From NCBI GenBank assembly GCA_030614005.1, contig JAUWKS010000036.1, forward strand, positions 226 through 32,225: DNA of 32,000 bases, given 5' to 3'. The notes beneath the pieces are model-generated. The model saw only the letters and a program-made list of their open reading frames with translations, made no database searches and was not told where the DNA came from. Below are positions 20,391-21,629 of this stretch, piece by piece. The position numbers were made by a program, and so were the translations under genes. The first letter of the stretch is position 1. Each line of letters opens with the position of its first letter. This DNA comes from Candidatus Heimdallarchaeota archaeon (GTDB lineage: Archaea; Asgardarchaeota; Heimdallarchaeia; JABLTI01).

Positions 20391-21629
20391 TCAAACATAT
20401 ATTTTACATCGATAGCAGTACCAGCGATTGTATTGTTTGATAAATGATAATTTGCTTCCACATTTTGGGCAATGCCCTTTTCGCTTCTTCTTTTTTGATT
20501 CCGATTTAACTTCTTTGGGTTGCTGTACTTTTTCCTTTACAGGTTCTAGCTCTGGTTCAGTTTCACTTAAAATTTCAGTAATGCTTTCTTCGTCATTATT
20601 TCCTTCAATAATGTGCATTGTATCGAGCTTTGATCTGTCAATAGTTTCATAGCTAGCATTCGCATCTGGTTGTGTTTGTGAATCGAAATCATCCATAGGA
20701 GGGACAGGAATCATTAAATCTAATTCAGCTGAAATGTCATCTACTGGTTGACTATAAGCTTCTGTTGAGTCAACTACAGTTAACATTTCTTTGTCAATAG
20801 ATTCAATTTTGTCTTTCAAAGAAGTGATTTCCTGATTTGTACTATCTATCTGAAATTTCTTTGTTTCAACAACTAACATTCGTTCCTCTAATGCTGTCAT
20901 AATTTCAGATAAACTGCTAATTTTCTCATTCAGCATGCTTAATGTTGAAATGAGCTGATTCATATGTTCTTTTTGTGGGACATCTGTTTCAATTTTTGGG
21001 GGCATAGGCAAGGGTTTTACTGTGAATGGTCGAGAATTATTATCTAATTCTTCACCGTCAGCCCTAGCCCCATTACGAGGGAAACCTTCTTTTTCCAGAA
21101 ACATTTTTCCCATCATATTGAAAGCTTCGCTGATATTTTCTCCAGTCAAAGCTGACGTATGCAGATAAGTAGCATCGATGCCTTTCATTTTCTTAATCTT
21201 CCCAAGGAGTTTATCAATATCTTCTTGTTTCACTTTTATTTTATCAGTAAGATCATGTTTGTTCCCTAGGATAATAAAAATCTTCAAAAAGCCCCCTGAA
21301 TGCTCAACTGCCTCTTCTACCCATTGGTCAAGTTTTTCTAGTGTTTCCGGTGAAGTGAGGTCACATACTAGGAATCCACATTTGCATCCACTATAGAATG
21401 ATGAGCGAACATGTTTGTACATTGCTTGACCAGCAAGGTCCCATATTTGGAAGTGAACTTTGTTTTCACCTAGAACTATTGCTTTTGATGCAAAATCTGC
21501 ACCAATGGTCTTAATGTATTCACTCTTAAATCCAACGCCCATAAACTGGGATCGAATGCTTGTTTTTCCTACTGAACCTTCACCCATTAGAACAATTTTG
21601 AACACGAATTCACGTTTTATTTCTGACAA
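20391..21629 (-). CDS. Rab-like small GTPase with long C-terminal extension (coiled coil, acidic linker, polybasic patch, Zn ribbon)
   Basis: G1 GEGSVGKTS, G2 YIKTIGADF, G3 FQIWDLAGQ, FYSGC, LVCDLT, G4 NKHD and G5 TSAL. The end is KKKKRKGHCPKCGSKLSFIKQYNRWYCYRCKIYV. TTG start. Confidence 0.9.
   Translation of the reverse strand: MSEIKREFVFKIVLMGEGSVGKTSIRSQFMGVGFKSEYIKTIGADFASKAIVLGENKVHFQIWDLAGQAMYKHVRSSFYSGCKCGFLVCDLTSPETLEKLDQWVEEAVEHSGGFLKIFIILGNKHDLTDKIKVKQEDIDKLLGKIKKMKGIDATYLHTSALTGENISEAFNMMGKMFLEKEGFPRNGARADGEELDNNSRPFTVKPLPMPPKIETDVPQKEHMNQLISTLSMLNEKISSLSEIMTALEERMLVVETKKFQIDSTNQEITSLKDKIESIDKEMLTVVDSTEAYSQPVDDISAELDLMIPVPPMDDFDSQTQPDANASYETIDRSKLDTMHIIEGNNDEESITEILSETEPELEPVKEKVQQPKEVKSESKKKKRKGHCPKCGSKLSFIKQYNRWYCYRCKIYV

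Follow-up and report, generated by a model that had tools for sequence, protein, structure and literature searches.

A Rab-like GTPase family of Heimdallarchaeia with a heptad-helix tail and a terminal zinc ribbon, and no prenylation motif

Background

According to Tran et al. 2024 (PMC10933270), the Rabs of Asgard archaea lack C-terminal cysteines, the Rab escort protein (REP) and the geranylgeranyltransferase (GGTase), and the Asgard Rab that was studied showed no membrane targeting, with no targeting device being reported. Thor-Rab (structures 7EZB, 7EZD and 7EZE; PMC10933270) is the closest described system to the gene presented here, which lies in a 32,000-nucleotide stretch (hereafter the window, meaning the whole of the DNA analysed) from a Candidatus Heimdallarchaeota archaeon (assembly GCA_030614005.1, contig JAUWKS010000036.1, positions 226 to 32,225). 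Both proteins combine a Rab-like G domain and RabF-like motifs with the absence of C-terminal cysteines, and of REP or GGTase from the genome. Thor-Rab, however, consists of the G domain alone and its C-terminus is truncated, whereas the window protein adds 227 conserved residues that comprise a helix, an acidic tether and a terminal zinc ribbon.

Like the window protein, eukaryotic Rabs (Rab7, Rab11/25, Rab4, Rab8, Rab6 and Ypt1) have the G boxes, the catalytic Gln and an IGxDF-type switch I, together with a C-terminal part that is hypervariable and flexible and bears a localisation device at its end. By contrast with them, the window protein has no prenylatable Cys and only partial RabF motifs, and its putative localisation device would be a folded zinc module instead of a lipid. 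Positioning without prenylation is known from other small GTPases, including Rit and Rin, with their polybasic tails, RABL2 and IFT27. Furthermore, EEA1 is localised by a C-terminus in which a basic FYVE zinc finger comes after a coiled coil. The likeness of EEA1 to the window protein is one of design and not of homology, the module being borne in EEA1 by an effector and not by the GTPase itself. Within Asgard archaea, the precedent for lipidation-independent membrane binding comes from Arf-type proteins with an N-terminal amphipathic helix (PMC11914678).

Here, we characterized the gene, its conserved tail, the other proteins bearing the same ribbon and the genomic context of the family. We consider it, on balance, somewhat probable that the tethered ribbon docks the switch to a partner or site shared with other ribbon-bearing proteins, standing in for a prenyl anchor, and that the tail helix forms a coiled coil.

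Gene model and Rab-like G domain

An earlier note made from the letters of this DNA had placed a Rab-like GTPase at 20391-21629 without stating the strand. The interval is filled by an uninterrupted open reading frame (ORF) of the minus strand encoding 412 amino acids (aa) followed by a stop codon (Table 1), and the plus strand of the same interval holds many stops; all the features that the note had listed were located at the expected residues of the 412-aa translation. The TTG start at 21629 is backed by the N-termini of orthologs (MSDIKREFVFK), which align with it in an alignment of 30 orthologs (alignment A1) that is also the basis of the conservation counts, segment identities and AlphaFold2 (AF2) model reported below. 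The public gene call for the same protein (P0002) is 398 aa long, 14 residues below the ORF (window 21588-21629, minus strand), and would fit a start at Met15 that cuts off strand beta-1. With a Pfam Ras match at E = 4e-37 and about 45 full-length orthologs of the same layout, this architecture is far beyond chance.

The protein is a small GTPase of the Ras superfamily, presenting all the defining motifs and the fold. The five G boxes that the earlier note had recognised occur in order and are 97-100% conserved across the 30 orthologs: G1 GEGSVGKT at residues 16-23, the G2 Thr41 within YIKTIGADF, G3 DLAGQ at 64-68 with the catalytic Gln of the DxxGQ motif, G4 NKHD at 123-126 and G5 SAL at 159-161. 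Pfam Ras (PF00071) covers residues 11-175 with the E-value given above, TIGR00231 matches at E = 1.4e-18, and the mean pairwise identity of the domain among the orthologs reaches 81%. The G domain is that of a Rab-like switch with intact nucleotide-binding and catalytic motifs.

Its assignment among small GTPases was approached by both sequence and fold. Against all chains of the Protein Data Bank (PDB), the top sequence match was the Thorarchaeota Rab 7EZB (E = 2e-29), and the other 59 of the best 60 were Rab or Ypt proteins. In the AF2 model, the G fold showed a predicted local distance difference test (pLDDT) of 70-86 over most of its length and lower values in the switch I region, and the best 50 Foldseek matches of this model in the PDB were all Rabs or Thor-Rab, with template modelling scores of 0.75-0.84 over the target. 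The designation as an Asgard Rab-like GTPase, already proposed in the earlier note, is therefore supported, "Rab-like" being founded on this ranking by similarity and not on a tree. The near-matches to RabF motifs were a more mixed case: the four strings that had been pointed out were located (IGADF at 42-46, HFQIW at 59-63, FYSGC at 78-82 and LVCDLT at 87-92), but their match to the eukaryotic reference motifs RabF1-F5 (IGVDF, KLQIW, RSITRSYYRGA, YDIT and LVGNK) is incomplete, with 4/5 positions for IGADF, 3/5 for HFQIW, a partial match for RSSFYSG, 2/4 for CDLT (FDLT in the family consensus) and 3/5 for ILGNK. These motifs resemble those of Rabs more than those of other subfamilies, yet they are non-canonical.

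Prenylation motifs and machinery

The protein ends in CKIYV, its last Cys, at position -5, being an invariant zinc ligand, and has no CaaX, CC or CxC terminus, as the earlier note had seen. None of the 22 Ras-like paralogs inspected in the genome carries such a lipidation motif either. The genome itself (3.6 Mb, 126 contigs, 90% complete) contains 40 Ras-family matches. At this completeness, the prenyltransferase alpha family (PPTA) scored 23.8 bits, below its cut-off of 29.5, and the search for GDI/REP gave 16.4 bits for GDI, below the cut-off of 23. The match to the beta family (Prenyltrans) was marginal, with 29.8 bits over only positions 22-113 of 304. Convincing prenylation machinery was not found in this genome, which is consistent with the survey of Tran et al. 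2024 (PMC10933270).

Architecture of the C-terminal tail

Beyond the G domain, 227 residues (186-412) were counted where the earlier note had announced about 230, and its heptad stretch and acidic disordered linker were both recovered. Directly past helix alpha-5, E181, G182, F183 and P184 are invariant in alignment A1; the EG pair recurs at the same position in a sister paralog and in Hel/Loki relatives, and the next Phe in some of them. After a Pro-rich linker come two predicted helices, in which LIVMF residues fill 91% (219-257) and 75% (262-290) of the a and d positions, against 18% and 10% elsewhere. This amounts to hydrophobic a/d periodicity on a predicted helix over at least four heptads, the pattern taken here as defining a coiled coil, and the first helix contains a conserved core, ALEERxLxVE (residues 246-255). 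The second linker is acidic, with 23 D/E against 10 K/R over residues 291-382, and includes invariant or near-invariant islands at P308, P310 and D331.

Two other avenues were explored for this region. For residues 219-257, net acidity and heptad periodicity at the a and d positions favour a coiled coil over an amphipathic membrane helix, a reading that was considered and rejected. A homodimer prediction with two copies of residues 205-295 and alignment A1 scored 0.02 against a mark of 0.42, which speaks neither for nor against self-association. Searches with the tail gave only sub-threshold noise in Pfam and NCBIfam (WASH_WAHD, IS1595 ribbon, S27, Rad50 and SMC) and nothing significant by sequence in the PDB, a match to RNase HII being rejected as low-complexity coiled-coil noise.

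Mean identity among the 30 orthologs falls to 40% in the helices and 30-34% in the two linkers, the acidic stretch 291-382 being at 30%, and stands at 78% in the terminal ribbon. This profile indicates that the long tail is a conserved and selected feature, and that the G domain and the ribbon are under strong purifying selection as the linkers drift. Since conservation is highest in the G domain and the ribbon, and a long flexible tether connects them, intramolecular regulation comes into consideration, in which the ribbon would fold back on its own switch region in an autoinhibitory or nucleotide-state-sensing manner. We regard this as most improbable, since the same ribbon occurs on proteins without a G domain (see below) and the AF2 monomer model, with a predicted template modelling score (pTM) of 0.42, shows no confident long-range packing between its parts.

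Immediately before the ribbon lies the KKKKRK patch that the earlier note had emphasised. The patch is indeed present at residues 379-384, but a run of six basic residues is found in only 3 of the 30 orthologs, the closest three, and a run of at least four in 4 of the 30; the net charge of the 25 residues preceding the ribbon ranges from about -5 to +7. Because KKKKRK is not conserved, a polybasic patch cannot be the mechanism of the family, which in this respect differs from K-Ras4B/Rit-like tails and their C-terminal basic run.

The terminal zinc ribbon and its other carriers

The C4 ribbon CPKC-x14-CYRC, correctly spotted in the earlier note, occupies residues 387-408, with four Cys that are invariant in alignment A1 and a pLDDT of ~90. 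In all 30 orthologs it contains 4-6 K/R, 0-1 D/E and 6 aromatic residues, and in most of them R or K precedes the first Cys. Its sequence lacks the FYVE signature (WxxD, R(R/K)HHCR and RVC are absent) and has four Cys against eight.

The best solved matches of a ribbon profile were the ribosomal proteins eS31/S27ae (E = 0.002-0.003), which have the same CxxC-x14-CxxC spacing and a common second-knuckle motif, Y-x-R-x-YC-x-KC. Together with its basic and aromatic surface, and with the label "ribosomal protein S27AE" given to some orthologs by pipelines of the Joint Genome Institute (JGI), this resemblance invites an explanation by RNA or ribosome docking, in which a ribbon derived from S27ae/eS31 would tether its carriers to ribosomal RNA or to other nucleic acid. 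Such E-values are nevertheless borderline for a Cys-rich motif of 30 residues, and Pfam Ribosomal_S27 (PF01599) reached 14.8 bits, below its cut-off of 22.3. The canonical S27ae-sized ribbon candidates of the same genome matched weakly (E of 0.25 or worse). In addition, the window ribbon differs from S27ae/eS31 in being an appended, reusable module on non-ribosomal proteins. Its carriers include a polytopic membrane protein, an FG-GAP repeat protein and acidic tandem arrays, a set that does not point to RNA binding, and we judge this explanation improbable.

These carriers emerged from a search for the ribbon on other Asgard proteins, a check that the earlier note had called for. Six carriers were found in the genome, with the consensus CPxCGxxLxFIxQYxRWYCxxCxxY (Table 1), and KKKKR precedes the ribbon in one of the two small proteins that bear it at the N-terminus. 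Each of the 12 genomes of the same GTDB family holds 3-7 copies, always on the same few protein sizes. Among 399 Asgard genomes, 46 gave a match to the profile, those outside the family being few and mostly weak. A search of 5.8 billion proteins with the ribbon profile (45-aa alignment) returned the same four carrier families, and in addition two proteins (P0127, 696 aa; P0128, 390 aa) that consist of 8-10 ribbons in tandem, with acidic or Lys-rich linkers between them. The charge of the module varies with the carrier, neutral or acidic ribbons being found on other carriers and in these arrays. Its occurrence in tandem arrays and on several carriers shows the ribbon to be an autonomous mobile module that folds and functions alone.

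Outside the ribbon, Pfam found nothing on the carriers. The FG-GAP carrier has counterparts of about 710-735 aa in the other family genomes searched and ends in a highly conserved C-terminal domain of about 200-225 aa, modelled by AF2 with a pLDDT of 61 and a beta-beta-alpha-beta-beta-alpha order. For this domain, a profile search against the PDB gave nothing, and Foldseek gave no match below E = 0.08, the weak, non-significant ones being to longin/roadblock folds. One of the small carriers (L014) was matched to a LOR/scramblase/Tubby-like barrel by an atlas search with a score of 0.89, and a second atlas match among the carriers scored 0.83; both are leads only.

Table 1. Position of the GTPase gene, its parts, its divergent neighbour and the other ribbon carriers of the genome (window coordinates, or contig and coordinates)
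Feature	Location	Strand	Remarks
Whole gene, Rab-like GTPase with extended tail	20391..21629	-	412 aa; TTG start 21629-21627, stop 20393-20391; ORF list, translation
G domain, residues 6-181	21087..21614	-	five G boxes and Rab-like switch/interswitch motifs; Pfam Ras, PDB, Foldseek, 81% identity
EKEGFPR motif after the G domain, residues 179-185	21075..21095	-	alignment A1
Linker 1, residues 186-218	20976..21074	-	Pro-rich, predicted disordered; pLDDT < 50; 34% mean identity
Heptad-repeat helices, residues 219-257 and 262-290	20760..20975	-	AF2 helices 220-256 and 262-289
Acidic disordered linker 2, residues 291-378	20496..20759	-	pLDDT < 50 over most of 284-383
KKKKRK, residues 379-384	20478..20495	-	present here, not conserved family-wide
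C4 zinc ribbon, residues 385-412	20394..20477	-	C387, C390, C405, C408; basic, aromatic-rich, S27ae/eS31-like
Intergenic region, 235 bp	21630..21864		divides the GTPase from the divergent coiled-coil gene
Divergent neighbour, 281 aa, candidate partner	21865..22710	+	N-terminal domain and long coiled coil; no Pfam match
Carrier: second Rab-like GTPase, 552 aa	contig C63		same layout; ribbon C-terminal
Carrier: polytopic membrane protein	contig C17		ribbon C-terminal, on Pro-rich cytoplasmic tail
Carrier: FG-GAP repeat protein, 726 aa (L012)	C71:76528-78708	-	ribbon internal, then K/P-rich stretch
Carriers: two proteins of about 220-260 aa (L014; L015)	C122:13047-13712; C2:5747-6523		ribbon N-terminal

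Distribution and evolutionary origin

Searching the 5.8 billion proteins with the GTPase returned 250 matches, about 45 of them full length (385-455 aa, 47-87% identity and ~100% coverage). The named full-length homologs are almost all attributed to Heimdallarchaeota, Heimdallarchaeaceae or "Asgard group", and the named homologs overall come nearly all from Heimdall, Hel, Thor or "Asgard group" metagenome-assembled genomes (MAGs). Three close homologs (P0006, P0007 and P0103) bear public labels of Zixibacteria, Thorarchaeota or Deferrimicrobium; they probably represent mis-binned or mislabelled contigs, and P0006 sits in a Heimdall-type syntenic locus. Across the 399 Asgard species genomes, a query with the tail found it in full in 12/12 genomes of the window's GTDB family (11/11 apart from the window's own) and retrieved only ribbon-sized matches outside the family, a query with one protein whose tail evolves fast and that may miss distant forms.

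The G-domain tree (IQ-TREE, LG+C20), an Asgard-internal one of 46 rows of which 21 are paralogs of the same genome, places the forms with a tail helix and the forms with a ribbon in one clade (support 97/93). Two ribbon-tailed families are sisters inside this clade with moderate support (95/77): the window's family (100/99) and that of the second GTPase, from contig C63 (100/100). The ribbon-less members of the clade (274-335 aa in Hel/Loki, ~244 aa in Heimdall) are the nearest relatives outside the family and end at the helix. Like the window protein, they have a G domain with the EG motif, then a disordered linker and a heptad helix, which aligns in register with its counterpart; linker 2 and the ribbon are what they lack.

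The simplest reading of this distribution makes the helix tail an early feature of Asgard Rab-like GTPases, followed by a single gain of the acidic tether and the ribbon in one Heimdall family, ahead of a duplication. The ribbon tail is a lineage-specific, derived variant and not the ancestral solution, and what eukaryotic Rabs were like ancestrally cannot be read from it. The earlier note had put forward a "pre-prenylation solution"; this proposal is not supported, for the ribbon was found, with these queries, on GTPases of only one Heimdallarchaeia GTDB family and appears late in the tree, and its being a late and local addition undercuts a role as forerunner of prenylation. The literature searched yielded no description of a Rab-like GTPase that combines a coiled coil with a zinc ribbon, and the family appears to be an undescribed variant of the Asgard Rab-like GTPases.

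Gene neighbourhood and candidate partner

The gene that diverges from the GTPase encodes a protein whose conserved N-terminal domain contains LWxEYPDYNPINN...HRVLGQIIRENW...HPLARDY and whose long coiled coil includes an invariant EAMNVQTGISKNFQ stretch. Its sequence is 49-66% identical across orthologous loci. It was found in 12/12 family genomes and adjoins the GTPase divergently on the same contig in 11/12, and four orthologous loci share this divergent arrangement. In a first sister family, a homolog of the neighbour lies directly upstream of a tail-helix Rab-like GTPase and in the same direction in 3/3 genomes, with a stop/start overlap of the pair in one case. The persistence of this adjacency despite a change of orientation across families is reasonable evidence for a functional link, and for this reason we retain the neighbour as a protein that may interact with the tail helix or the switch. 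The paired GTPase of the sister family (P0198; L030 2862-3752, plus strand) has DLAGH in place of DLAGQ, its catalytic Gln being replaced by His.

At a larger scale, the four orthologous loci (52-61% protein identity) display the same order of a radical-SAM (S-adenosylmethionine) gene, a gene for a protein of ~280 aa on the opposite strand, the GTPase and a DUF362/Fer4 gene, and genes for JAB/MPN and HEAT proteins are kept in 3/4 of them. The JAB/MPN protease gene (18127-18984, minus strand), located 1.4 kb downstream and not adjacent to the GTPase, encodes a coiled coil and a C-terminal transmembrane segment. The HEAT/JAB/Fe-S/GTPase stretch was examined as an operon-like unit and rejected, with only the coiled-coil neighbour retained, because JAB and HEAT are missing at one locus and the interspersed genes are housekeeping genes, as are the remaining genes of the window. 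No longin, roadblock, TBC or DENN protein was found in the window.

Many ubiquitin-binding domains are small zinc fingers, and a nearby JAB/MPN gene that recurs in three of the four orthologous loci could hint at ubiquitin-like or ESCRT (endosomal sorting complex required for transport) recognition, with the ribbon as a zinc-finger ubiquitin-binding module. Asgard ESCRT-I-like families also include proteins with a Zn ribbon and a coiled coil (PMC10936438). This explanation seems to us very far from likely: the ribbon has no sequence similarity to NZF, UBZ, A20 or ZnF-UBP, one of the orthologous loci lacks the JAB gene, and unrelated genes stand between this gene and the GTPase.

Two further observations concern the surroundings of the ribbon-bearing genes. 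A membrane protein of the window (23787-24611, plus strand) ends in a short ribbon of another kind, CxxC-x10-CxxC, that is Zn_ribbon_3-like below cut-off, and the matching position is occupied in all four orthologous loci by a gene of 233-240 aa without a Pfam match. The sister ribbon GTPase on contig C63 is followed, 45 bp downstream, by a gene for a 174-aa protein whose match to the first longin domain of FUZ/MON1/HPS1, at 26.1 bits, just reaches the cut-off of Pfam. This longin protein is a candidate exchange factor for the sister ribbon GTPase, which fits Rab-style regulation. The coordinates at this site (L031) are 3095-5323 (minus strand) and 7327-7890 (plus strand), and an Arf-like GTPase lies 2 kb off.

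Proposed mechanism

In the mechanism that we favour, the G domain would act as a GTP/GDP switch and the ribbon, on a disordered tether of ~90 residues, would dock the GTPase to a partner or site common to the other carriers, thereby replacing the prenyl anchor as localisation device. The proteins docked alongside it would be the sister GTPase, the polytopic membrane protein, the FG-GAP protein and the two possibly scramblase/Tubby-like proteins. The heptad helix would pair with itself or with the neighbouring coiled-coil protein, the latter then being an effector or a tether.

The alternative with the closest bearing on this mechanism is a direct, lipidation-independent binding to membranes, in which the basic, aromatic ribbon and the lysine-rich stretch would contact anionic archaeal lipids, the coiled coil adding avidity in the manner of EEA1 or of the polybasic Rit/Rin tails. 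Several observations are in keeping with it: the GTPase ribbon is basic and aromatic in all 30 orthologs and mostly preceded by R or K, other carriers look membrane-related (the polytopic protein, and possibly those of scramblase/Tubby-like type), and Asgard Arf GTPases bind membranes without lipidation (PMC11914678). We nonetheless hold it to be unlikely, given that KKKKRK is confined to 3/30 orthologs and the 25 residues before the ribbon vary from acidic to basic, that other carriers and the tandem arrays have the module in a neutral or acidic form, and that only four Cys and no FYVE-type signature are present. Moreover, the ribbon is kept by a polytopic membrane protein, for which a lipid anchor would be superfluous. 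This retention and the lack of charge conservation across carriers lead us to prefer protein docking over direct lipid binding. The "lipidation-independent membrane or partner-targeting tail" of the earlier note is hence kept in part, partner targeting fitting the data and an anchoring of the ribbon in lipids being doubtful on account of the membrane-protein carrier and the neutral or acidic ribbons.

Some of the evidence weighs against docking to a shared partner, or tempers it. The ribbon of the GTPase family itself is always strongly basic and aromatic, a character that would also be suited to binding RNA or anionic lipids. The ribbon profile drew on the family's own sequences, so that the census of carriers is biased towards it, and the longin/roadblock and scramblase/Tubby-like labels of the carriers are leads only. 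As to the coiled-coil partner, a remote homolog of the neighbour in a second sister family does not adjoin a GTPase, and much of the long-range synteny likely reflects the shared ancestry of related genomes.

Implications

The family bears on how Asgard Rab-like GTPases reach their place of action, prenylation sites and machinery being absent from them and the one studied example having shown no membrane targeting (PMC10933270). For one Heimdall lineage, the family described here provides a concrete, conserved and tractable candidate answer, in the form of a tethered zinc module joined to an older helix with an adjacent coiled-coil gene. It illustrates how Asgard archaea may solve the localisation of GTPases by protein modules, the ribbon being confined to one family. 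The ligand of the ribbon would show which cellular site these switches control, and whether the GTPase, a regulator and membrane proteins are co-targeted.

A broader and rather doubtful extension, which we put forward tentatively, is that the ribbon acts as a lineage-specific "address tag" for the two GTPases, a longin-type regulator candidate, the membrane protein and the scramblase/Tubby-like proteins, with the helix coupled to the adjacent coiled-coil protein in a prenylation-independent system of Rab plus tether. If true, this address-tag reading would amount to a prenylation-independent localisation of Rabs in a close archaeal relative of eukaryotes.

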